Position numbers and translations under genes: made by a program
Origin: Scyliorhinus canicula
Taxonomy: Eukaryota
Length of the DNA stretch: 64,000 bases
Assembly (NCBI RefSeq): GCF_902713615.1
Contig: NC_052161.1
Span: forward strand, 89,940,236-90,004,235
Direction of reading: 5' to 3'
In this document: in pieces, positions 28,434 to 63,700 of the stretch
How positions within the stretch are numbered: the first letter of the stretch is position 1
Layout: each line of letters begins with the position of its first letter
Notes under the pieces: generated by a model
Databases searched by the model: none
Told to the model about the DNA's origin: nothing
Seen by the model: only the letters and a program-made list of their open reading frames with translations

Positions 28434-31400
28434 TGTCATAATATACACCAGTATATCATGGTGCAGACACACACTGATGGACACACAGGGACCAATCAAC
28501 ATGTACAAATACCGCAGCCAATCACCAGTTAGAATACACACACTATAAAGGCAGAGGGCACCACGGTTCCCGCTCATTCTGGGTGCTGCCTCTCAGTGTA
28601 ACAAGAACTCATCCAGCCCGGCACAGACTTACAACACGTGCTGAGTGAATCAACTGGTTTGGACAAGGCTTAGGTCTCTAGTTTAAGTTAGCATCATTTA
28701 GACCCACAGTCATCGTGTCTTAGTTAGTTAGAAGTAGTTAATAAAATTGAGTTGAACCTTCATCAGTGTTGGAAGTGTCTGTTCATCTTTCAAGTCTACA
28801 CTAACCAACACTTAATGGTACCAGAAGTTGAGGGATGCTCGCACTTCTGAGACCTACCTTTCAGTGATCTTCCTTCCACCAGTCTCGCCATCCTACAGAA
28901 TGGACTCCATTCGCCCGCCGGATCCTGTCCGCATTGCAGGGAATCTGGGCTCCAACTGGAAACTTTTCAAACAGCGCTTCCAGCTGTACCTCGAAGCCAG
29001 GGACCTGGAAGCTGCCTTGAACACACGGAAGATTGCTCTCTTCCTCTTCACAGCCGGTGCTGCACATTTACAACTCACTCACCTTCGATGAGGGGGAGGA
29101 CAAATCGAAGTTCAAAACCATAATTCTGAAGTTCGACAGTCACTGCGCGGTCGAGGTCAACGAGAGCTTCGAGGGATACATGTTTCAGCAGCAAATTCAG
29201 GGTAAGGACGAGCCTTTCCAGTCCTTTATTACCCACTTCCGCATCCTTGTGCAGTCCTGCAACTACGGGTCCACCTCTGACTCCATGCTCCGTGACCAGA
29301 TTGTTTTTGGTGTTCAATCTGAGCCCCTGCGCCAGCAGCTACTAAAAGTAAAGCAGCTCACTCTCGCTACGGCCATTGAGACCTGTGTACTTCATGAACA
29401 TGCCTCCATGCGCTACTCCTGCATCCAGGCCGCTGAAACGGCGCGGCAAGCCCCTTACGAGGCAGAACGGGTCCAGATGATAAAATCTCTTCAGGCTCTG
29501 GATTTGAACGATGGCGGCCATTTTGCGCGCTTTTCGCGTAGTCCCGTGCTTACACGCAGCGAGCGTGCTGACGTCACCGACCGCTTCGCACAGGTACGCG
29601 CTATGCTGGATCGCCCCGCGCATATGCAGTGGCGCGACGAACGTCCCAATGCTCCGGCGTGCGGCTCCGCCCACTTAAAGCGGCAATGTCCTGCGAAGCC
29701 CCGACGCTGCCTGCAGTGTGGCAAAAGAGGCCACAACGCCGCAAATCTTCCATGCCTGCTGTTTTTAGGAGGTCCTCCCAGCCCCACAGAGACGTCAGGG
29801 CTATCCAGCCTGCCATCAATTAACCTAATCCAGACCTTGCTTCCGACTGTGCCTGCAATGACCCACGGGTCCCGTTCCAAATCGGCGTCATTACTACGAA
29901 CAGGATGTCCCCCAAGCGTGGCACTGAACCCGTCCACGTCCACAGCGTCAGCCAGGATGATGAGTGGTGTGCCACCCTTACGGTCAACCGGTCCCCTGTC
30001 AGGTTCCGCCTGGACACTGGCGCTTCTGCCAATCTCATCGCGTCGTCTGATTTTCACAAGCTCTGCGTACAGCCTGCTGTCCTGCCATCTGCGTGTAAAT
30101 TGCTGGACTACAATGGCAATGCCATCGCCTCCAGCAGCTCCTGCCGCCTTGAGGTGACACATCGCGCTCACACAGCCATTCTCCCGTTCGAGATTGTTGC
30201 TGCCTCAAAAGCCTCCTTGCTTGGTGCGCAGGCATGCAAGCTGCTCCACTCAGTGCAGAGAGTACACTCTCTCTCTTCAAGCGATGTGTCTGCATCCTCT
30301 GACACAGACTTCAGGGCACAACTCGACTCCATCATCCAGCAATACCATGATGTTTTTGAAGGCTCCCGTACACGTATAAAATCTTACTCAAGCCCAACAC
30401 CACGCCTGTCGTTCACGCACCTCGCAGAGTCCCAGCGCCCCTCAGGGACTGCCTCAAGCAACAGTTCCAGGACCTCCAGGACCAAGGAGTCATTTCTAGG
30501 GTCACGGAACCCACAGATTGGGTAAGATCAATGGCGAGCTGCGGATCTGTATTGATCCTAAAGTCATGAATCAGAATATCATGCGGGAGCACTACCCGAT
30601 CCCGAAACGTGAGGAGCTCACGTCCGAGATGGCCCACACCAAACTATTCTCAAAACTGGATGCCTCGAAGGGTTTCTGGCAGATCCAACTAGATGAATCA
30701 AGCAGGAAGCTGTGTACGTTCAACACACCCTTTGGCAGGTTCTGCGACAACCGGATGCCATTCGGCATCATCTCTGTGTCCGAAGTTTTCCACTGGATCA
30801 TGGAGCAGATGATGGAGGGGATCGACGGCGTCCGGGTATATGTCGACGACATTATTATCTGGTCAACCACCCCGCACGAACACATTGCCCGCCTTCAGCG
30901 TGTTTTCAGGCGCATCCACGAACACGGCCTCCGCCTCAATAGGGCCAAATGCTCCTTCAGCCAGCCAAGTATCAAGTTTCTGGAGGATCACATCTCCCAC
31001 CAGAGGGTGCGTCCAGGCGAGGACAAGATTGCAGCAATCACGTCCATGAAGACGTCCGAGGACAAGAAAGCGGTTCTCCGGTGCCTGGGTATGGTGAATT
31101 TCCTCGGGAAGTTCATCTCAAATCTTGCCAAACACACCACGGCCCTCAGAGACCTGATTCGCAAAACCACAGATTTCCAATGGCTCCCTGCTCACAAGCG
31201 TGAATGGCAGGAGTTGAAGTCCAAGCTTTCCACAGCCCCAGTCTTGACCTTTTTCGACCCGACCAAAGAGACCAAAATCTCTACCGATGCCAGTCAGTCG
31301 GGAATTGGTGCCGTGCTCCTGCAACGAGATGAGACCTCGTCATGGGCTCCCGTTGCGTATGCGTCGTGGGCGATGACCACCACAGAGCAGCGCTATGCGC

Positions 31401-34017
31401 AGATTGAGAAAGAGTGTCTCGGCCTTCTCACTGGAGTTGTGAAGTTCCACGACTAAGTCTATGGACTTCAGCAGTTCACGGTTGAAAAATCAAAAAGGAC
31501 CTGAATGACATGACGCCTCGCCTCCAGCGTATCCTACTCAAGCTGCGCAGGTACGACTTTCAACTGATCTATACCCCGGCAAGGACCTTGCTGTTGCCGA
31601 TGCCCTCTCAAGGTCGATCACAACTCCGTCTGATCATGATGGCTTCATTTGGCAAATAGATGCTCAAGTTCAGCTTGCAGCCTCCCATTTGCCAGCTTCC
31701 GATGCACGACTGATACAAATTCGCCATGAGACAGCGGCTGATCCACTTCTGCAGTGGGTGATGTGCCTAATGTCAGACGGGTGGCTCAAGGGCCAATGCC
31801 CGCAATTTTACAACATCCGCGATGACCCTGCGGTTGTCGACGGGGTGCTCTTGAAATTGGATCGCATCGTCATCCCACAAAGCATGCGCCAGCTAGTGTT
31901 GGAGCAACTCCATGAAGGCCATTTAGGAATCGGGAAATGCTGCCGCAGGGCCAGAGAAGCCGTCTACTGGCCGGGCATCAATGATGACATCGCCAATGTG
32001 GTGCTCAACTGCTCTACCTGCCAACGTTTTCTGCCCGCCCAACCACGAGAGACCCTGATGCCCCATGAGCTCGTCACATCGCCAGGGACCAATGTGGGCA
32101 TTGACTTGGTCCATGCATTGGGCAGCGACTACGTCATCACCATTGACTACTTCTCCAGTTACCCGGAGGTCATCAGGCTGCACGATCTCACATCCTCGGC
32201 TGTGATCAGGGCATGTAAGGAGACATTTGCCCGACATGGCATTGCGCTGACGGTCATGTCGGACAATGGCCCCTGTTTCGCGAGCCAGGAATGGGCCGGC
32301 TTCGCCCGACACTACAACTTCGAGCACGTTACGTCCAGTCCCCTATACCCCCAATCCAATGGGAAGGTGGAAAAGGGGGTCCACATTGTCAAGCGGCTCC
32401 TCAGCAAGGCCGCGACGCCGGCTCAGATTTCCATCTTGCTCTGCTGGCCTATTGCTCCGCCCCGCTCTCCACCGGCCTGTCGCCTGCTCAGCTGCTAATG
32501 AACCGCACCCTCAGAACGACGGTGCCATCAATTCTCACTCCCAGCCTCGATTATGTCCCCGTGCTCCACCGCATGCACATGTCTCAACTGCAGCAGAAAA
32601 CCTCCTACGACTCACGGGCTGCTGACCTTCCCGACATCCATCCACGCGACAAGGTTCGCATCCACCTCCCGGATGGTGGCTGGTTTGCGCCTGCTATCGT
32701 TCTAAAGCAGGTGGCCCCCCGCTCCTTCCTGCTCCGCTTCCCGGATGGATCCATTCGGCGCCGCAACAGGCGTGCTCTTCGCCTGATTCCAGGGTCGTCA
32801 CGGGATCCTCCGACCAGCTCTTCTACTGATCCCGCCGTGGACTGTGTGGCTCTTCCGGTCGCTCTGCCTGCCCCTGACAATGCTGCAGCCCTCCCGGCTC
32901 CTGAGCTGCCAGCCATTGCCCCACCCTTGATGCCGTCAACCAGAGTTCGTCGCCCACCTCAGAGACTGAACTTATGAACTCTGTACACATGTGGACTCTC
33001 TGAAATGTTCTTTTTCCTCTATCCTTTATTGTTGCATTCGTTATCCAGTGATTTGTAAATAGATTCGTTGGTTGTTCCAGTTCATGGTAGTCATCTGCAC
33101 CAGGCACCTTCCTCTGTAAATAGTCTTGTTCCCTGGCTTTGTATATATGTCTTGCACCTCACACGTAGCTAGGTACATTCTCCACATACCCACACTATTT
33201 ATTATCACATGCCTACATCAACATTTTTTTTATAAAAGGGGGGATGTCAGAATATACACCAGTATATCATGGTGCAGAAACACACTAATGGACACACACA
33301 GGGACCAATCAACATGTACAAACACCGCAGCCAATCTCCAGGTAGAATACACACACTATAAAGGCAGAGGTCACCACGGTTCCTGCTCATTCTGGGTGCT
33401 GCCTCTCAGTGTAACAAGAACTCATCCAGCCCAGCACAGACTCACAACACGTACTGAGAGAATCAACTGATGTGGACAAGGCTTAGGTCTCTAGTTTAAG
33501 TTAGCATCATTTAGACCAGGGGTGGGCAAACTACGGCCCGCGGGCCGCATGTGGCCCGCCAAAGGTATTTCTGCGGCCCACCAAGTCATTAAAAAAAAAA
33601 AAAAAAAAAAATTTTTTTTTAAAATTTTTTTTTTTTTTTTTAAGGTTAATGGGGGGGGGGCTGTTGGGTTACTTACTGGTATAGGGTGGATACGTTGACT
33701 TGAGTAGGGTGATCATTGCTCGGCACAACGTCGAGGGCCGAAGGGCCTGTTCTGTGCTGTACTGTTCTATGTTCTATATGAGGCGTCCAGAATCATAACC
33801 GGGTGAAGTAATTATTTTACTTAATATACTATGCGGCCCTTTGTGAATTGTGAATTTCTGAATGTGGCCCTTGCACGGAAAAGTTTGCCCACCCCTGATT
33901 TAGACCCACAGTCATCGTGTCTTAGTTAGTTAGAAATAGTTAATAAAATTGAGTTGAACCTTCATCAGTGTTGGAAGTGTCTGTTCATCTCTCAAGTCTA
34001 CACTAGCCAACACTTCA
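28434..34017 (+). mobile_element. Full-length Ty3/Gypsy LTR retrotransposon, frameshifted; same broad family as 6140-11141
   Basis: LTRs 28434-28815 and 33245-34017 (the latter interrupted by a MITE), about 95% identical by eye. 5-bp TSD CAAGG, PBS TGGTACCAGAAGT (tRNA-Leu UAA), PPT before 33245. PR FRLDTGAS, RT YVDDII, RH TDASQ, IN SDNGPCF. Confidence 0.95.
33517..33897. mobile_element. hAT (Charlie-type) MITE carrying a SINE 3' fragment, inserted in the 3' LTR
   Basis: TIRs CAGGGGTGGGCAAACT / AGTTTGCCCACCCCTG, 8-bp TSD ATTTAGAC, HE1-type SINE tail at about 33640-33778. Confidence 0.9.
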
Positions 34018-40164: not shown

Positions 40165-51788
<11,624 letters not shown>

Positions 51789-54920: not shown

Positions 54921-55305
54921 CTGGATTGGCGATTGATAGGACAGTAGTGAGGGGAAAGGAGAGGATGGAAAACGAGAGGCAGAGTGAGGAACCGAGCGAA
55001 GTGGAGACATTTGTCCGGAGCTCCTGGCATTACCAAGAGCGGCAGTAGTCAGTCAGAGGGTTGAGAAACAAACTGACCAATCCCACAATGACCCAGTAAC
55101 CCCAGACCCTGGCGTTCTTCAAACTACCCGGTCAACAAACCCGCGGAGGGCCGGCCTGGAGTCCTGAGGGAGGGGCTGGGGCCAGAGCCCCAAGGGAGGG
55201 GGGACAGGGTAGAGCCCCGACACGAAGCAGAAAAGCCCGAGGGCGACGGGGTGGTGAGGAAATCCACCATCAATCCCTCACATTCCTCCACCCGCCTGTA
55301 CTTAC

Positions 55306-55422
55306 ATATTCCTCCTCCAGATTGAGGAGATGGTCGACAGCCTCCTCGACATCATCAAGCAGTCCGGTTACAGTCACACATCTGTTATCCCCAGCGTCAG
55401 ACGGGGGGAATTGAATCTCTAC
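55306..55422 (-). CDS. HDLBP: Vigilin-like exon (end of last KH domain); acceptor lies at the edge of an N gap
   Basis: VEIQFPPSDAGDNRCVTVTGLLDDVEEAVDHLLNLEEEY|gtaagt, versus human vigilin VDIRFPQSGAPDPNCVTVTGLPENVEEAIDHILNLEEEY. 117 nt. Confidence 0.88.
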
Positions 55423-55706: not shown

Positions 55707-57265
55707 CAGAGAGAGAGGGACGAAGTGAGAGAGAGAGAGACACGAAGTGAGAGAGGGAGAGACGAAGTGAGAGAGAGAGGCGGAGAGAGAGAGAGAGGCT
55801 GAGTGAGAGAGAGAGAGAGAGTGGGAGTGGAGAGGCGGAGTGAGAGAGAGAGAGGCTGAGAGAGAGAGACGGAGTGAGAGAGAGAGAGAGAGAGAGAGGC
55901 AAAGAGGTGGGGAGAGAGTGTGGTGAACCACTGTACATCTGTATTAGGGGATGTAAGGTAAGACTTGTACTACAGGTTCGCCGGTAGCCCCTGTCGGCTA
56001 GCTCCGCCCACTAGGATCTGTATAAATATGCGTGTCCTCCATTGATCTGCCATTTAGCCAGCTGCAGCAGGAGGCCACGCATCTGACTGCAATAAAGCCA
56101 AACTTGTACCCTGTAGCCATGCTGGCCACGCAAAATGGACACTGAGCCAAACTAAAATGGAAGGCTGCTGAGAAACAGACAGTTCAGCCAGAACAGCAGT
56201 CTGCAAAGAGCAGTTTGCATTCTGCAGCAGCAGAAACCAGTTTGGGCTCAGGTGCAGAGACCTTAGCTAGGTGCAAATGGCAAAACGCTTTGCATGCTAA
56301 TGAGGCCATCAGACTTGAACACCCACACAATAGATACATTTGGTTCTGAATGGACACATTCCAATCAAGACCCAGACATCGAGGCACCAGAAACCTCCGA
56401 ACAAAAGGACATAAGAAACGCCCCCTCCATCACGGAGACCCCCTCGCATTGGGGAATTAATCCAGTATCGATAAGAAATTGATCCAATAGGTAGAGCCCG
56501 CCCGAGAAGAGGGAAGGACAACGGAACCCCTATAAAAGATAGGGACCTCGTGTTGTCCGGTCTGTTAAACCTGTGCTCCGGTCCCGACTGACACCTGGTA
56601 TCCTGACTCCAGCCGTTGAGCACCAGCCGCCGAAACCGTAAGTTCAACGCTCGCTACGCGATCCAAGCCCACTAGACTCCCAAGTGCCAGAACGCTTGCT
56701 GAAGGCTGCAGACAAAACCAGGACGAAGGCCTCGTTCTCTGACCTTGCCTGTTCCTGTTAGATAAGTATTCTGTTTGCTTATGTTTAGTTGTAGCTTAGT
56801 CTCTTAGTGTGTGTGCATGAGTATTTATTATTAACTGTATAATAAATATTGATCGTTTGAACTTGACTAATCGGTGTATAGCTTTTATTCGTTTGAACCC
56901 TTGAGGACCAATAAACGCGTTTTACGCCCATAGTAAAACGTGCAACATTTAGTGGCGACTCTGATGGGACCCTGTTGTAAGTGGAAACACCACAGTGTCC
57001 AGGACCCTGAAATTTGAATTAGAACTCCAAATTGCAGAGAAAGAAAGAGATCACAAGTATTCAAGGTGTTCAAAATAATAAGCGAAATTCGGAAGTGTGT
57101 TTAGTGCATGCGTACTAACAGGGCTGTAAGGTAAAACTGAAAGCTTTTTGTTGCGACAAACTTTCGGTAGTTTTGTAATCGGAAAATAGCGTAAGCCGTA
57201 CCCTTTTCACGAAACACCACCCCAGCAACCCCCTGTTCCAAATTATAAAAAGAGAGTCAGAGGAA

Positions 57266-59314
57266 ATGGCCATGCAGGCAATGGAACGTCTGATGGATCC
57301 AGCAAAGTTTGTGGTCGCAGCGACCAGCAGCAGTAGCAGAGTAGGCCAGTGTCCCACGTGGGAGCTGGAACTCCGCAAATATTTACAAGGAAAGGGATGG
57401 CCCCTTTGGAAAGAGTTTTGTGCAAATGAGGAGACAGGTCCCGGAAGTATAGGTCATACTTGGTGGGAGAACCTCTCTCAGATACACAAAAAGAGTTTAA
57501 GTAAAGCACGCAAGCCGATGGCGATTGTGTCCTGCTTGGCACAGTTGCGAGGCGCAGAGGAGGTTATCAGGACGCTCCGGGCAGATTTAGAGGAAAGGAA
57601 CCGAATGAGTAAGGTCGATGTCAGGGACATCGAGAAAGAAAACCTGGATCTAAAAGGGAAGTTGGCAGAGAAGGGTAGAGAGGTGGATGATGCCAAGAGG
57701 GCTCACCAGTCTTGTCTAGCTCATCTGAACAGTTCCCAGACCCAGTATGAGAAAGCCTATCAGGACGTGCAACGTGCCGTTCTGATAAGACAGGAATCGG
57801 AAAAGCAGGTGGAGGCATTGCAGAGGCAATGCTCTGATCTCAAAGCAGCTTTGAGAGCACTCCACGCTGCAACGACCGAACAAAGACAAAGCACAGTTGA
57901 CCACGCGAAATGCAGAAAACAGATTGCGGAACTGCAATCTCTGCTTTCGGTGCAGAATGGCTTCCAAAGCACCTTTGGAGCTCAGTTAGATGGGGAAAAC
58001 GCCCCAGATTGGCAGGAATTAAGCGAGACAGCGCAGCGTTATGTTCAGGGAACATGTGCGCCCGCAGCTCAGCAGAAACGACAGGCACCCCAACCCCCCA
58101 CAGCTCAGATCATAACCGCACCCATGAATCCCGTAACCACACAGAGGAAAGCCGAATCAGAAGGCGCCCCAGACATAACTTACACCACCCCTTTAACAGT
58201 AACCCAGCTAAGGGACGCTTGTGAAAAGATCACTCCGTTCCTCCCCACCGCAGACCCCCACCAGTTCTTTGCGAAAGTAAAACAGCAGGCTACCATGTAC
58301 GGCCTGGATGAGAGAGAGCAGGTTAAGCTCACCGTGCTGAGCTTAGACCAGAGTGTAGTGGCAGCCCTCCCCGACCCACAAAACGTGGCAGGAGGCAGCC
58401 TAGAGGAGATGCACACTGCTATTTTAGATGCCATCGGGTACAATAGAGGTGACCCCGTAGAAGGATTGAATAAGTGCAGGCAGAAAAGATCCGAACACCC
58501 CACAGCATTCGCAGGAAGGCTGTGGATTCATTTCAGCGCAGTTTTTGGAGAGTTAAATAGAGCGCATTTAACCCGTGAAAACATGATTAAGTGGACGCGC
58601 ACAATAATCTCACACGCGACAGAGGCAGGACAGAATGTCTGCAGCAATTATGACCCCTCAGAGGAGGCCCATAATGAAAAATGGGTCTTGAAAAGATTGT
58701 CCCGCATTTGGCAGCAATCCGTCCACAATAAAACAGCATTTATAAATCCCGAAGAGCAGGCAGATGCAGACATGAATCCAGTTAAAACACATCAAAACCC
58801 CGCATGTGTAAATGAGGGAAGGAACAGCCCACAGCAGATCAAGTCAAAGGAATGTTTTAACTGTGGACAATTAGGACATTACGCTCGAGAATGTCAAGCC
58901 CCCCCGAAACAGCAACAGAATCAGCCCACCAATGCCCCCCGAAGCAGCAATGAAACCAACAGCCCAGACCCCCCTCTCAGGGAACAGTACACAAGGGAAC
59001 AATGCACCAGAGTGCCTGCTCCGCCTTATGTGCCTCAGGGGTCATGTTACAACTGTAGGCAGCCAGGACACTTCTCCCGAGATTGCAGGAGACACCCAGC
59101 ACCAGCTAGACCCGCCCCCAGATATGAAAGAGAACACCACCCACAGCAGCTACAAGGTCCCAGCTTCCCCATGCAAACTATGAGTGCTTACCCACCACTT
59201 CTCATGGCAGGGATACCTCAGCAATGCCAGTTCATTTTTGTTTCTCTCCTTCCCCTCTTCTTCGGTCACACTGCACTGGCTCCATATGCTAGTTACACCC
59301 CCAGCCAAATGTAA
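57266..59314 (+). CDS. gag: Gag polyprotein, intact, 682 aa
   Basis: Uninterrupted ORF after the PBS with a long predicted coiled coil, a capsid-like region and two CCHC knuckles (CFNCGQLGHYAREC, CYNCRQPGHFSRDC). Confidence 0.88.
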   Translation: MAMQAMERLMDPAKFVVAATSSSSRVGQCPTWELELRKYLQGKGWPLWKEFCANEETGPGSIGHTWWENLSQIHKKSLSKARKPMAIVSCLAQLRGAEEVIRTLRADLEERNRMSKVDVRDIEKENLDLKGKLAEKGREVDDAKRAHQSCLAHLNSSQTQYEKAYQDVQRAVLIRQESEKQVEALQRQCSDLKAALRALHAATTEQRQSTVDHAKCRKQIAELQSLLSVQNGFQSTFGAQLDGENAPDWQELSETAQRYVQGTCAPAAQQKRQAPQPPTAQIITAPMNPVTTQRKAESEGAPDITYTTPLTVTQLRDACEKITPFLPTADPHQFFAKVKQQATMYGLDEREQVKLTVLSLDQSVVAALPDPQNVAGGSLEEMHTAILDAIGYNRGDPVEGLNKCRQKRSEHPTAFAGRLWIHFSAVFGELNRAHLTRENMIKWTRTIISHATEAGQNVCSNYDPSEEAHNEKWVLKRLSRIWQQSVHNKTAFINPEEQADADMNPVKTHQNPACVNEGRNSPQQIKSKECFNCGQLGHYARECQAPPKQQQNQPTNAPRSSNETNSPDPPLREQYTREQCTRVPAPPYVPQGSCYNCRQPGHFSRDCRRHPAPARPAPRYEREHHPQQLQGPSFPMQTMSAYPPLLMAGIPQQCQFIFVSLLPLFFGHTALAPYASYTPSQM

Positions 59315-60359
59315 TTTACAGTATCCTTTGTTCTGATGGAACCTGTACGATATTCGTTGCATGTTTGTTTGTATGTGTTTGTTAAATGTTCAGTGTTTAA
59401 ATTTAAACAGCTTTTCACAGACCCACGCCACCACTGATGGAACCTGCACGTATGTTTGTCTTCGTTTTATGTTTGTTTGTTTTCAGGAATGTAAATGTTT
59501 CAGTTGGAGGATGGACATCTTCTTTTCAGCTGAAAAGATTGTGACCACCTCACATACACGTTAGCTTGTCTGCCGAAACTTTTGAGAACTTCGGTTTGAT
59601 TGGAGATCCTTTCCAAAGTTGTAAGGCCACACGCCAAATAGCTTGTCCGCAGATATTTCTGAGAACTTCAGTTGTATCCTCTGGTGAACCGACACGGTTC
59701 ACGACTTGTTCCCTGTTTTCAGAACGGAGCATCTTGGCTCCCTTGGTTTTTTAGGTGCCCCTCTATTCGGCGAAATAGAGGCTGCAAGTCATGGTCAACA
59801 CATTCGTACCCGTTTCTTTCCAGGTTACTCAGGCAGTGGACAAACGGCACTGAGGACCCGCCCTGTCTGAGAACCAACCCTTGGTCAGCCAAGCTCGGGT
59901 ATGGCACAGCACGCCCTACCCGGGGATTCCATCCAACTCATACCCGTAGCGGCCCATACGCAACTCATTCGGATGTTTATTTCCAAGTTTGTTTTTCATT
60001 TTACGTTAGGTAGCCCTTCGGCCACCATCCCACATGCTATTTACATCCGGAAACATTCGGATGGTAAATCAGCAATGCCTGCGAGACGGCTCGCAGAAGG
60101 AAGGATTGTTAGGTGTATGCTGGTCTTTAAATTCGCTTTTTGAAAAAAAAATGAGGGGAGTCACAGGGTGTGACTTAGCCAGTCATTTTAAAGGGTCAAT
60201 TGGGATTTGAAAGACAGATGCACTAACAAGTAAAGGTCTTAAACTGTGTATTGACAGATACTGTGCTTGATCCCAAAGGTTTCAAAGGACGAGACAGAGG
60301 TCGAAGCCAGGATTGTCAATACCGGAGGAAGAAGGAAGAGAAAGAAGAAGAACAGCAAA

Positions 60360-60713
60360 ATGATGGAAGCCCACTTATTACTATTTAATGTCATATGTAT
60401 ATGTGTGGAAACAAGACACGTTTCCCCCACAACCCCCACCGTAAATGTTAGTACAGCAAACCCCCAGTGCTCAGCTCTGATCAGCGAGGTTCAGACCTGG
60501 TGTACTAAATTCATGACGTGGTACTCCATGTCCTACATAATCGAATCACTGTTGGTGATTGCGATCCTCACCATCCTAGTGCAGACCCTCAGGTTGAGGA
60601 AATGGAAGAGGAGAGCCTCTCGTTCCAGCACCTCACCCATCTATAGAGTGCAATCCCCCATCTTCGGATTCCACCAAACCCCTCAACCCCTCACTGATTA
60701 CAACACTCTGTAA
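60360..60713 (+). CDS. Small predicted membrane protein (117 aa from ATG) inside the LTR element
   Basis: Hydrophobic N-terminus LLLFNVICICV, NVS sequon, TM-like YIIESLLVIAILTILVQTL, polybasic RLRKWKRR and C-terminal YNTL. Confidence 0.55.
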   Translation: MMEAHLLLFNVICICVETRHVSPTTPTVNVSTANPQCSALISEVQTWCTKFMTWYSMSYIIESLLVIAILTILVQTLRLRKWKRRASRSSTSPIYRVQSPIFGFHQTPQPLTDYNTL

Positions 60714-63700
60714 ATAAAATTCAGCCATGTATTATATTGTTCCATACTCGACTGCCGAGTTGGGAAGTGTGATGTTGTGGTGTGAATGGTTAAGGTTTAG
60801 AGTGATTAAATGTTTAAGTTAAGTTAAGGTTAATAGTGATAGGTAGAGGTTCCCAATTGTAGTAATGCATGTCCCTTTGACATAGGGCCAAGTAGAAATG
60901 TTAGTTAAATTTTTTTTCTCTTCTTCCCATAGTTTAGAACAGAGTAGAACAGGAACTGGCAAGAGGTCAGAACACAAGGAGGCAAAGTACATAGGTGATC
61001 CTTCACAATAGTATGATTGTGAGGATCACAAGGAGGGAATGTAGCCATGCTGGCCACGCAAAATGGACACTGAGCCAAACTAAAATGGAAGGCTGCTGAG
61101 AAACAGACAGTTCAGCCAGAACAGCAGTCTGCAAAGAGCAGTTTGCATTCTGCAGCAGCAGAAACCAGTTTGGGCTCAGGTGCAGAGACCTTAGCTAGGT
61201 GCAAATGGCAAAACGCTTTGCATGCTAATGAGGCCATCAGACTTGAACACCCACACAATAGATACATTTGGTTCTGAATGGACACATTCCAATCAAGACC
61301 CAGACATCGAGGCACCAGAAACCTCCGAACAAAAGGACATAAGAAACGCCCCCTCCATCACGGAGACCCCCTCGCATTGGGGAATTAATCCAGTATCGAT
61401 AAGAAATTGATCCAATAGGTAGAGCCCGCCCGAGAAGAGGGAAGGACAACGGAACCCCTATAAAAGATAGGGACCTCGTGTTGTCCGGTCTGTTAAACCT
61501 GTGCTCCGGTCCCGACTGACACCTGGTATCCTGACTCCAGCCGTTGAGCACCAGCCGCCGAAACCGTAAGTTCAACGCTCGCTACGCGATCCAAGCCCAC
61601 TAGACTCCCAAGTGCCAGAACGCTTGCTGAAGGCTGCAGACAAAACCAGGACGAAGGCCTCGTTCTCTGACCTTGCCTGTTCCTGTTAGATAAGTATTCT
61701 GTTTGCTTATGTTTAGTTGTAGCTTAGTCTCTTAGTGTGTGTGCATGAGTATTTATTATTAACTGTATAATAAATATTGATCGTTTGAACTTGACTAATC
61801 GGTGTATCGTCTTTATTACTTTGAATTTGACCTTGGAATACTTGTGACGTTGCCTATACGGCAGCTGGCGACTCCAGAGCTTAAATAATTACATAGAACA
61901 GAGCCTAGCAGTGTTAAGCACACGTCGAACTCGGAGGCGTGTTAATACACTCCAATAAACGCGTTTTACGCCCATAGTAAAACGTGCAACAACCCAACCT
62001 TAGTCTTTGTGCAATTGATCGTGCTCAATTTATTGCAGTCAGTTTTTCACCAAGATGGACCTCCGAATCAAACCAGATCGCCTGAAGCTGGATCCACACT
62101 CGCCCGACGCTAGAAAAGACTTTAATCACTGGCTAGTTTGCTTCGAGGCTTACATCAACTCAGTGACCCCCACACCGACGGAGGCTCAGAAGATACAGGT
62201 CTTGTATTCCAGGTTGAGCTCAAGCGTGTTCCCGCTGATCCAGAACGCCCCGACTTACGTCGAAGCCATGGCACTCCTCAAAGAGGAGAAAGTGAACACG
62301 CTCTTCGCCAGGCACGTACTCGCCACTCGCTCGCAACTCCCTGGTGAGTCCATCGAAGACTTCTGGCGGGCCCTAATACCACTAGTCCGGGACTGTGACT
62401 GTCAGACCGTTATGGCCACCGAACATTCTAATCTCTTCATGCGCGATGCGTTCGTAACGGTGTTTGGGTTGGACCTCATCAGACAACAAATGCTGGAAGG
62501 GACCATGCTCGACCTAGCGAAGACAAAAACATTAGCGCTCTCCATGACGGTTGCCTCCCGTAATATTCAGGCCTACCCCTCACGCCGCGCGGCCCACCCC
62601 TCCTATCCCTCCTGGACTCCGCAACTGACCCCCCAGCTGGGGCCCTGCATAGCCAATATTCCTGCGCCACATGCCAATCTGCGCACCCCGGGGGTCCCCA
62701 CTGCTACTTCTGTGGCCAACAGAAGCACCCCCGGCAACACTGCCCAGCTGCGCCGCCACTTGCAAGTCTTATAACAAAAAGGGCCACTTCGCCGCAGTGT
62801 GCCAGGCCCGCACAGTCGCCGCTATCGCCCCCTCCCCCCTGCCTACCGCACAATGTGCACTGCCATCTTCACCTCCTGGGGCCACATGCGGCCAGTGGGT
62901 GCCGCCATCTTCATCCCCTCAGTCCACGTGTGGCCCATGGGCGCCGCCATCTTGTCCCACTCCTGCAATGTGCGCCCCATGGGCGCCGCCATTTTGTTCC
63001 CCGCAGGACCTCTTGTCGCCGCCATCTTGTCTTCCCCACGGGGCAGGAACGCCAACGACATCCCACGACCTGCGCCCCCAACGCTCTCCGTCTGAAACCT
63101 TTGACGATCACCCGCTGCTCGCCTCGATGATGCTGGACCAGTCTCGTCCACACAACCTGGCCACCGCTTCGACAACGGTGAAAATCAACGGCCACGTGAC
63201 CTCCTGCCTGCTGGACGCCAGGAGCACCGAAAGCTTCATACATCTGGATACGGTAAGGCGCTGCTCCCTCGCGGTCCACCCCACCAATCAACGGATCTCC
63301 CTGGCCTCCGGATCCCATTCTGTCTCAATCTGAGGGTTCTGCACAGTCACTCAGTCCAGGGTGTAGAATTCAGCGGTTTCTGTCTCTACGTTCTTCCTAA
63401 TCTCTGCGCTGCACTATTGCTGGGCCTGGATTTTCAGTGCAATCTCCAGAGCCTCACCCTCAAATTCGGCGGGCCCCTACCTCCACTGACCGTTTGCGGC
63501 CTCGCGACCCTAAAGGTCGATCCCCCCTCCCTCTTTGCCAATCTAACTGCGGATTGCAAACCCGTTGCCATCAGGAGCAGACGGTACAGCGCCCAGGACA
63601 AGGCCTTCATCAGGTCCGAGGTCCAGCGGCTGCTTCGGGAGGGTATCATCGAGGTCAGCAACAGCCCCTGGAGAGCCCAAGTGGTAGTAGTTAAAACCGG

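Follow-up and report, generated by a model that had tools for sequence, protein, structure and literature searches.

A pol-less, gag-keeping LTR element of Scyliorhinus canicula as a probable recombinant of a young env-less retroviral family

How does an LTR element that has kept gag and lacks pol come to be copied, and on whose enzymes might it depend? The question is raised by an element confirmed here at positions 56112-61991 of a 64,000-nt stretch of Scyliorhinus canicula contig NC_052161.1 (the window; all features lie on its plus strand). Very probably, the element is a pol-less recombinant of a young, env-less family of retrovirus lineage, likely copied through packaging together with the RNA and Pol of a full-length sister.

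The element is flanked by matching target site duplications (TSDs), ACCC, at 56108-56111 and 61992-61995. It splits the 5' LTR of an old, high-copy Gypsy-type element (55919-62774) with a gag-like ORF at 62055-62774; the other LTR of this host element is 86% identical to the split one, and the partner copy of the older LTR has a single ACCC at the insertion site. The 5' LTR (56112-56947, 836 nt) carries TATA at 56531-56538 and AATAAA at 56841-56846, from whose positions its R and U5 borders were inferred, and the 3' LTR (61040-61991, 952 nt) has a standard U5. The original prediction held the LTRs to be identical by eye over 768 bp. Their first 768 nt and last 40 nt are identical, but the 28 nt between these parts in the 5' LTR correspond to 144 nt in the 3' LTR, a U5 difference missed earlier: a short-U5 patch (56880-56907) stands in for 144 nt of standard U5. 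Since there are no differences in 808 nt, the age of the element has an upper bound of about 2-8 My, set by the assumed rate, and the predicted extreme youth holds as a relative term. The TSD, the primer binding site (PBS, 56953-56970) and the polypurine tract (PPT, 61028-61039) are intact, as had been stated. So is the reported absence of PR, RT, RH and IN from the interior of about 4.1 kb borne out: tblastn with the partner Pol gave no match to the 4,092 nt between the LTRs at E<=1.

The pol-less form is multi-copy, and a pol-bearing partner is present in the same genome. A marker of the pol-less junction has 136 exact matches on many contigs and a marker of the partner pol 1,773; these are exact-match counts rather than curated copy numbers, and pol-less copies number at least 136. 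The best 39 other gag matches comprise 15 copies of pol-less and 24 of long layout, and their LTRs are 98-100% identical to those of the window in 36 cases and 81% in three, with partner LTRs reaching 99-100%. With these matches, the same junction in 23/23 pol-less copies read and the cassette spanned by contigs of independent public sequencing runs, the chance that a single private deletion or an assembly error explains the missing pol is practically nil. Pol-less copies have LTR pairs with 0-2 substitutions per ~950 nt (13 standard pairs) and matched 4-bp TSDs in 12 of 13 measured insertions. They are dispersed, have their own TSDs and the same interior structure, carry no RT or IN and retain intact cis signals common with the autonomous partner, which supports the earlier view of a recently mobile non-autonomous element that borrows Pol.

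The common parts of the two forms are the LTR, the tRNA-Arg PBS, the leader, most of gag, a small ORF and the PPT. The long class encodes a 582-aa Gag with one CCHC, a single in-frame stop and then a 1,408-aa Pol, open in 18/24 copies, with the order PR-RT-tether-RH-IN in frame with gag and a dual RNase H. The gag/pol junction reads TGA-CGG in 65/65 cases. Between pol and the 3' LTR, all 24 long copies hold only an ORF of 117-118 aa in place of env, and the two LTRs of partner elements are often unlike. None of the sequencing runs recorded as RNA contains a stretch of the element, and no splice joints occur in the element-covering contigs of 8 runs guessed to be RNA; a candidate splice donor (56637) and acceptors (59487 and 60257) were picked by eye only.

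Judged from sequence comparisons among copies, the pol-less form is a recombining cassette and not a plain deletion. The cassette (58560-59433) comprises about 800 nt of a divergent gag 3' end with a second zinc knuckle and no pol, and its left crossover, at ~58470-58660, differs among copies. It is 97.7-100% identical in 13/13 pol-less copies tested, on gag backbones that are 80-99% identical, and therefore was moved by recombination. Against the best long copy, the window copy is 98.7-100% identical in U3, the leader, the N-terminal and CA parts of gag, the 3' region and the small ORF, and only 81.5% in the gag 3' end. A source of the cassette was not found among its best 40 genome matches, all of 97-100% identity; the closest protein from elsewhere, at 47% identity, is the end of an unnamed Gag with one knuckle. 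A satellite of an uncharacterised shark retrovirus-like family had been proposed. The nearest named homologues, from Scyliorhinus, are consistent with a shark host; the passenger is a recombining cassette and not an independent satellite with its own LTRs.

The PBS matches 18/18 nt complementary to the 3' end of a tRNA-Arg(TCT) gene from the same genome plus CCA. It differs among copies as different tRNA-Arg isodecoders do, and of 26 loci found with tRNA 3' patterns, 14 lie inside elements as copies of spliced tRNA that carry CCA. A second tRNA-complementary site (57013-57030; 17/18 to the anticodon arm of the spliced tRNA) marks the point at which tRNA read-through landed in other copies. PBS switching, the recombinant cassette and the recombinant U5 would be footprints of packaging and reverse transcription with partner Pol.

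The short U5 is almost confined to 5' LTRs. Its exact matches precede a PBS in 70 of 74 cases, against 775 of 1,813 standard ends (p 9e-21), and LTR pairs are short/standard in 52 copies and short/short in 2; TSDs of short/standard copies are matched in 27/31 and 15/15 measurable cases in two sets. As the variant is so distributed and the TSDs are mostly intact, the pattern points to reverse transcription of two RNAs, with short-U5 RNA seldom supplying the 3' LTR. The two short/short elements indicate that the block on short-U5 copies is not absolute. Exact-variant short-U5 copies with a measured interior are pol-less in 3/36 cases. Short/standard pairs show 136 other LTR differences in 52 copies, against 16 in 31 standard-pair controls, which are biased towards youth because they were chosen by closeness to the window gag. 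The extra differences are overrepresented 3' of the inferred start site (p 5e-4) and often fall at recurrent positions. Five short/standard pairs (L163, L170, L147, L152 and L154) differ mainly in U3; intermolecular transfer of the plus strand, or a greater age, would account for this better than run-through of the minus strand.

A leader arm (57049-57084) would, by predicted folding, form a duplex with the initial segment of U5, in its standard as in its short form. The predicted duplex with the standard arm has -36.4 kcal/mol, a value reached by 2/300 shuffles, and that with the short arm is matched by 23/300. Occlusion of the PBS was not supported as the short-U5 defect, the predicted opening energies of 10.0-10.3 (short) and 9.7-9.9 kcal/mol (standard) showing no difference; because these are alike, direct structural support for a putative priming defect is limited to the predicted loss of a hairpin adjoining the PBS. 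An origin of the short U5 as a reverse-complement copy from the leader was rejected, as the matches were short and partial.

Copying of the pol-less form could then proceed as follows. Transcription from the 5' LTR would yield an RNA that holds every cis signal and encodes a two-knuckle Gag of its own; this Gag would co-assemble with the Gag and Gag-Pol (by TGA read-through) of full-length copies. The partner RT would prime on tRNA-Arg and switch templates between co-packaged RNAs, placing the cassette on whichever backbone is active, and the partner integrase would insert the pol-less copy. The unlike U5s of the window copy would be a two-RNA footprint: a standard RNA would have supplied the R-U5 of the 3' LTR, and the 5' patch would stem from a short-U5 RNA, a type that on its own likely rarely primes or rarely integrates. 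Cassette and short U5 might instead have spread by ectopic gene conversion between proviruses at the DNA level. Conversion would explain the 5' bias, as the U5 of the 5' LTR has homology on both sides and that of the 3' LTR does not; it would leave TSDs intact, and hybrid, nested U5s that cross over at different points are present. It would nevertheless require that short-U5 RNA still be unable to give rise to short/short copies, of which 2 are seen beside at least 70 short 5' LTRs, and that dozens of conversions took place in a family with mostly identical LTR pairs, and the window copy joins its short patch to a tRNA-copied PBS, a product of reverse transcription. We consider gene conversion improbable.

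The pol-less element probably makes its own capsid, as its gag (57266-59314) is open and selected. The predicted unbroken 682-aa Gag, with a capsid-like region and two CCHC, is upheld: the knuckles (58853-58894 and 59045-59086) match Pfam zf-CCHC (E 6.5e-14), and a model of residues 270-545 resembles retroviral capsids, with MLV CA as top PDB match (probability 1.00, E 4e-3) and an ERV Gag match in BFVD (E 1.4e-6). The long N-terminal helix is predicted in a low-confidence single-sequence model (mean pLDDT 44), and the single-sequence fold of residues 1-545 was too poor for use. Shared variants of gag in 23 pol-less copies have a pN/pS of 0.06; the selection behind it may have acted on long-class backbones, acquired by recombination, and not in the pol-less state. 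The RNA could accordingly be a passive passenger, packaged wholly by partner Gag, with its own gag merely young and undecayed. Such a view is favoured by the singleton pN/pS of the cassette tail (0.75), by the refreshing of most of gag from long copies by recombination, and by the 9 of 24 pol-less copies without a two-knuckle Gag of 681-683 aa, most of them through breaks; the other 15 have it. Yet the chimeric frame across the crossover and a second, intact CCHC persist on backbones that differ by up to 20%, and shared variants of the tail lean synonymous, if weakly (pN/pS 0.33, p 0.047). On balance, a passive passenger seems doubtful, and we retain an element that contributes its own Gag to mixed particles.

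A small membrane ORF had also been predicted, and an ORF of 117 aa (60360-60713) occupies the env position in both element classes. Starting with MMEAH, it has a hydrophobic N-terminus (an apparent signal peptide), an NVS sequon, an amphipathic stretch (ecto-helix moment 0.51), one transmembrane (TM) segment, the polybasic RLRKWKRRASR (7 of the 15 residues that follow the TM are K/R) and a tail. An N-terminal extension was rejected, as other subfamilies have a broken frame 5' of the MM start. The ORF is open in 87/89 copies with a pN/pS of 0.22 on shared variants (p 0.006) and is, by these values, under purifying selection. It has no Pfam family; among longer proteins one homologue was found, from Scyliorhinus, and Atlas matches were all <0.9. 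Its length within 60-210 aa, single TM, polybasic patch and amphipathic ectodomain (by hydropathy and moment only) are those of FAST/sORF2 proteins, and the MGxxxS/T myristoylation motif is absent from its N-terminus. The product likely functions in the family as a type I membrane protein, and a role in cell-to-cell passage may be hypothesised. Env loss with intracellular amplification is a common path of ERVs, and we see an even chance that the ORF is a shrunken env remnant, a signal peptide joined to the membrane anchor and tail, retained because it harbours an RNA element or aids membrane trafficking and without part in transmission, in a family that moves inside germ cells. Its place 5' of the PPT, an N-terminus unlike that of typical FAST/sORF2 proteins and the lack of an informative homologue agree with a remnant. 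Its openness and low pN/pS speak against one, as do the ecto-helix, TM and polybasic patch, which hardly vary between subfamilies or in a Scyliorhinus relative that is 69% identical and of the same short layout; a weak search found no longer env-like homologue.

Spuma- or loki-like and Gypsy relatives had been suggested, and the partner turned out to be none of Gypsy, Loki proper or the catshark foamy-like ERV. Its RT groups with frog and coelacanth ERVs, near snakehead retrovirus (SnRV) and lokiretroviruses (Loki). The first RT tree had no outgroup; tblastn at E 1e-5 found no Gypsy RT, and two were then cut from open frames by motif. A starred clade unites shark, frog, coelacanth, turtle, SnRV and Loki, its interior branching not settled, in a tree that has no foamy, ERV-L or Odin rows and an unreliable root. 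Grouping with SnRV is not rejected (p-AU 0.18), grouping with Loki has 62/87, and the partner lies outside the Loki branch (100/100) in a tree with two to four Loki rows. RT identity is 51% to SnRV and 39-44% to Loki, whereas tether and integrase, the latter with best matches annotated NYNRIN-like, are nearer Loki by identity (39-46% and 41-45%, against 25% and 34% to SnRV). The SnRV reference RT matched the sequence given for SnRV in the supplement to the Loki paper (PMC7947760), where the PFGYANSP motif, missing from the partner RT, occurs 31 times. Gypsy/Metaviridae membership was rejected on the dual RNase H and an RT not outside retroviruses; Loki membership on the RT position, the domain layout and the absence from long copies of an F-like Env (a relative of Mononegavirales F), a Loki trait; and membership of ERV4, ERV-L or spumaviruses on the CCHC and 4-bp TSD, these groups having no zinc finger and ERV3/ERV4 a 5-bp TSD (PMC4299795). 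The catshark ERV-Spuma.0-Sca has a different layout (866-nt LTR, ~750-aa gag, ~980-aa pol, and env), and a motif search for it was negative. A predicted coiled-coil-type long helix, one zinc finger and in-frame gag-pol with a stop are as in SnRV-like/Huo elements, whose env is missing from the 24 long copies. As far as sequence can tell, the partner is an env-less lineage near SnRV/Loki.

These elements represent a recent, large retroviral burst in a cartilaginous fish, in a poorly classified region of the tree between SnRV and Loki. With the 5'-only U5 variant, nature offers a genetic test in vivo of strand transfer and of which RNA does the priming, and LTR pairs that can differ already at insertion would distort both the dating of LTRs and their annotation by LTR finders. 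Should the small membrane protein serve in spread, Env-independent transmission, known from insect retrotransposons, would also occur in a retrovirus lineage of vertebrates. One could imagine, although as a whole we think it unlikely, that a near-SnRV lineage swapped Env for a 117-aa FAST/sORF2-like protein, reached well over a thousand near-intact germ-line copies by means of it and hosts two layers of co-packaging parasites: a pol-replacing gag cassette that hops from subfamily to subfamily, and short-U5 genomes that are unable to start reverse transcription, borrow the strong-stop DNA of a partner and are inherited only via the 5' LTR.

Gag-only satellites such as Bhikhari and ENS-1 are already known; in the open-access articles and preprint text searched, we found no account of this family or of a U5 variant restricted to 5' LTRs, and the family may be present in subscription papers, Repbase/Dfam or bioRxiv supplements under a library name. 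SnRV is primed by tRNA-Arg, as is the shark family. In the accessible parts of its descriptions, SnRV also has a coiled-coil Gag with one zinc finger and a stop between gag and pol, which share a frame (PMC2717909). An ERV lineage of the elephant shark that clusters with SnRV is known; compared with SnRV and clade Huo as there described, the partner has no env, a TGA stop and hundreds to thousands of young copies (PMC2717909, PMC6001957, PMC4977317, PMC4422223). Loki resembles it in the dual RNase H and the NYNRIN/CGIN1-like integrase annotation, and Odin, from sea anemones and absent from our RT tree, also has no env, according to the available sections (PMC7947760, PMC9040795); the Loki survey, in its accessible text, screened sharks and did not list them as hosts (PMC7947760). 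The small ORF is like the sORF2 of the Drosophila MDG1 group and reovirus FAST proteins, as portrayed in the consulted portion of bioRxiv 10.1101/2025.03.14.642691, in being a small single-pass protein with an amphipathic ecto-helix and basic residues after the TM, and like sORF2 in belonging to an env-less LTR element. It differs in having no myristoylation motif, an apparent signal peptide with an N-glycan site and a position 3' of pol; the retroelement families are different, and the likeness is one of layout. The chicken ENS-1/ENS-3 (ERNI) pair parallels the shark pair as a Gag-keeping variant of an autonomous non-class-I ERV with a coiled coil before the capsid, although ENS-3 is placed sister to ERV-L and the comparison is by description only, from part of the source (PMC12067270). 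Zebrafish BHIKHARI-1/-2, in the excerpts available, are young LTR elements with near-identical copies, one long Gag (coiled coil and capsid) and no pol, for which complementation by a partner is presumed, as here; they are described as loki-related, with a glycine-rich end in place of zinc knuckles, in contrast to the two CCHC of the shark Gag, and the small TM ORF is kept in the shark element, unlike Bhikhari (PMC12067270). No Bhikhari Gag was recognised among the matches to the shark Gag. For Bhikhari-like satellites no helper has been identified, and that source, as far as available, places no partner in the reference (PMC12067270), whereas in the shark the helper exceeds its passenger more than 10-fold in the same genome, leaving a readable record of co-packaging.

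The pol-less LTR element (56112-61991) is real, and the original prediction is correct in outline. Its 4,092-nt interior holds a 682-aa ORF with two CCHC motifs and a 117-aa ORF, and no trace of Pol was detected anywhere in it, as had been claimed. ACCC stands on both flanks of the element and once at the corresponding place in the other LTR of its host, an old Gypsy-type element split by the insertion (LTRs 86% identical), which bears out the expected target-site duplication (TSD). The LTRs, predicted to be identical over 768 bp, are so over their first 768 and last 40 nt, but they differ in length (836 nt for the 5' LTR, 952 nt for the 3' LTR), 144 nt of the 3' LTR being replaced in the 5' LTR by 28 nt (56880-56907). 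The position of this difference downstream of AATAAA suggests that it lies in U5. An alignment-based model of Gag residues 270-545 (16 rows, mean pLDDT 73) resembles retroviral capsids, in agreement with the capsid-like region foreseen in an intact Gag. ERV and epsilonretrovirus Gags account for 13 matches in BFVD at E<=1e-3; in the PDB no match fell below 1e-3, and MLV CA was the top one (E 4e-3).

An intron of a KH-domain gene may harbour the element in antisense orientation. An exon-sized KH piece on the reverse strand (55303-55422; Pfam KH_1, E 2.4e-4) resembles the last KH repeat of vigilin. On the forward strand, about 12 kb from the element, an exon (43783-44187; Pfam APOBEC_N, E 4.5e-44) covers most of an AID/APOBEC deaminase domain and resembles AICDA. 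Two further Gypsy-type elements are present: one (29021-32977, forward) is broken, its gag, PR, RT-RH and integrase fragments lying in different frames, and the other (about 6700-9800, reverse) is decayed.

A gag search of the 4.2-Gb genome, in which the best 40 of 4,399 candidates were scored and the 39 of these other than the window copy were fetched, recovered both the same-structure copies and the pol-bearing partner that had been anticipated: 15 fetched copies share the layout of the window copy and 24 are long. Long copies carry about 4.4 kb in place of 530 nt and encode a 582-aa Gag, one stop, a 1,408-aa Pol with PR, RT, tether, RH and IN, and then the same small ORF; none of the 24 has env, the small ORF following pol instead. 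The Pol frame is open in 18 of them. Among all fetched loci, TGA-CGG marks the gag/pol junction in 65 of the 65 long copies with a whole gag followed by PR, 41 of which have an open pol; UGA-CGG is a read-through context. Of the exact 26-nt markers, the pol-less one matched 136 times and the pol one 1,773 times (reversed controls, 0), which excludes a single-copy element. In 13 standard pol-less pairs the LTRs are 0-2 substitutions apart, and 12 of 13 insertions measured have a 4-bp TSD. The closest named Gag homologues, 71-77% identical, are from Scyliorhinus torazame. Tandem proviruses with one common LTR occur at loci L032/L033, L125, L143 and L165.

Outside the 3' end of gag, where identity is 81.5%, every region that the window copy shares with its best long copy is 98.7-100% identical. 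Over roughly 58470-58800, identity to long copies drops from 99% to 73%. Among themselves, 13 of 13 pol-less copies match at 97.7-100% over 58620-59430, their upstream gag being 80-99% alike, and the crossover points differ between copies. The uniformity of this cassette on varied backbones shows that the pol-less class is one cassette moved onto several subfamily backbones. Template switching between co-packaged RNAs would yield such an arrangement, and recombination in heterozygous virions is established (PMC5086612).

With three duplicate loci removed, shared variants have a pN/pS of 0.06 for the shared part of gag, 0.33 for the cassette tail (13 variants, p 0.047) and 0.22 for the small ORF (p 0.006). 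The small membrane ORF (60360-60713) is retained, as predicted, being open in 87 of 89 copies. It has a hydrophobic N-terminus, an NVS sequon, one TM segment (hydropathy 2.06), an amphipathic helix (moment 0.51) and 7 K/R in the 15 residues after the TM; its core is near-invariant between subfamilies and is also kept in a Scyliorhinus protein that shares the short layout (69% identity). These features resemble sORF2/FAST in size, TM, polybasic stretch and amphipathicity, but not in myristoylation (bioRxiv 10.1101/2025.03.14.642691). The ORF may be a shrunken env or a mini-fusogen.

The partner RT finds its best matches in proteins of frog, coelacanth and turtle that are annotated as NYNRIN-like (frog and coelacanth, 59-61%). 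The Loki paper's supplement (PMC7947760) identifies one match (P0016) as SnRV RT and the eel and cyprinid matches as Loki-type. With SnRV the partner RT shares 51% identity and with Loki 39-44%, but the partner's tether and IN are nearer Loki than SnRV. A 22-row RT tree, built with a long outgroup and containing no foamy, ERV-L or Odin rows, joins the shark sequence with its relatives, SnRV and Loki in a single starred group, from which class I ERVs and Gypsy are separate; it does not reject a grouping of shark with SnRV (p-AU 0.18). The shark row falls outside the Loki branch. We class the partner as a lineage neighbouring SnRV and Loki rather than as a member of either; the suggested Loki-like affinity holds as neighbourhood but not membership, and the Gypsy one does not hold. 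SnRV-like ERVs are reported from elephant shark and coelacanth (PMC4422223, PMC4977317, PMC6001957). Among Gag relatives that are distant yet alike in layout (P0130, P0133, P0134), one is named and comes from horn shark (Heterodontus), which shows that the lineage extends beyond catsharks. Locus L174 is flanked by a degenerate RT from an older related family, whose identity to the RT of the partner is 44-50%.

The 28-nt patch has 40 exact matches in the genome, 39 in 5' or shared tandem LTRs and one in a terminal 3' LTR; where the downstream LTR is visible, it is standard in 35 of 36 copies. A wider short-U5 pattern gives 74 exact matches, 70 of them immediately 5' of a primer binding site (PBS), the others being the 3' LTRs of two short/short elements, the only two seen, one hybrid 5' LTR and one unread match. 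Standard U5 ends, counted in one LTR subtype only, precede a PBS in 775 of 1,813 cases. Matching TSDs in 27 of 31 measurable short/standard copies of one set, and in 15 of 15 of another covering 17 of 20 loci, rule out a fusion of two insertions as the source of the asymmetry. Textbook reverse transcription copies a single U5 into both LTRs, and short-U5 parents should therefore produce short/short offspring. The unlike LTRs are best explained by priming on standard RNA and a jump to short-U5 RNA: the minus strand would be primed on the former and, after the jump, would run through PBS, U5 and R of the co-packaged latter. The 52 short/standard copies hold 136 further LTR differences; the 31 standard copies used as control, a set biased towards young copies, hold 16. 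Those of the short/standard copies are more closely spaced downstream of the inferred start site (76 differences in 315 nt, against 60 in 445 nt; p 5e-4), and many fall at recurring sites. DNA-level conversion may instead have made the unlike U5s. Among 5' LTRs, 6 of 54 short and 14 of 46 standard ones are followed by a tRNA-copied PBS (p 0.02). In predicted folds the short U5 retains the arm pairing with the leader and loses the hairpin adjoining the PBS, while predicted PBS accessibility is the same in both forms; the short-U5 defect may accordingly lie in priming or in a poor integrase end. Pol-less copies make up 3 of 36 exact-patch copies, and the patch has thus crossed between the two classes.

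The PBS varies between copies, and several forms fit tRNA-Arg(TCT) genes of this genome, that of the window copy at 18 of 18 positions. Spliced, CCA-bearing tRNA copies sit inside elements at 14 of 26 loci found with tRNA 3'-end patterns, which shows that mature tRNA-Arg is the primer. The copies extend to the anticodon arm and then rejoin the leader at a site (57013-57030) complementary to that arm at 17 of 18 positions and exact in 82 of 105 loci scanned; we infer a second tRNA contact there. At L070, L072, L075, L101, L103, L104, L185-L189 and L191-L193, some 40 nt of spliced tRNA-Arg stand in place of the leader between PBS and second site; in L189 and L191 two tRNA isodecoders are combined as chimeras, and L185/L186 show this kind of event in divergent families. 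The commonest element-encoded PBS (L031-L069), at 19 nt one base longer than the tRNA form, persists alongside tRNA-corrected forms. A PBS-like motif, TGGCGACTCC, lies in standard U5 (61865-61874), kept in every subfamily read and missing from short U5.

The literature searched yielded no published account of this pol-less/long family or of a 5'-restricted U5. A catshark genome paper describes declining LTR activity (PMC11979771). Surveys of invading ERVs demanded env (PMC10435555) and would therefore miss the present family. Young Gag-only ERVs such as Bhikhari and ENS-1 are known (PMC12067270); beyond these, the catshark family has a probable helper identified in the same genome, a hopping cassette, a 5'-only U5 and a small membrane ORF under selection.
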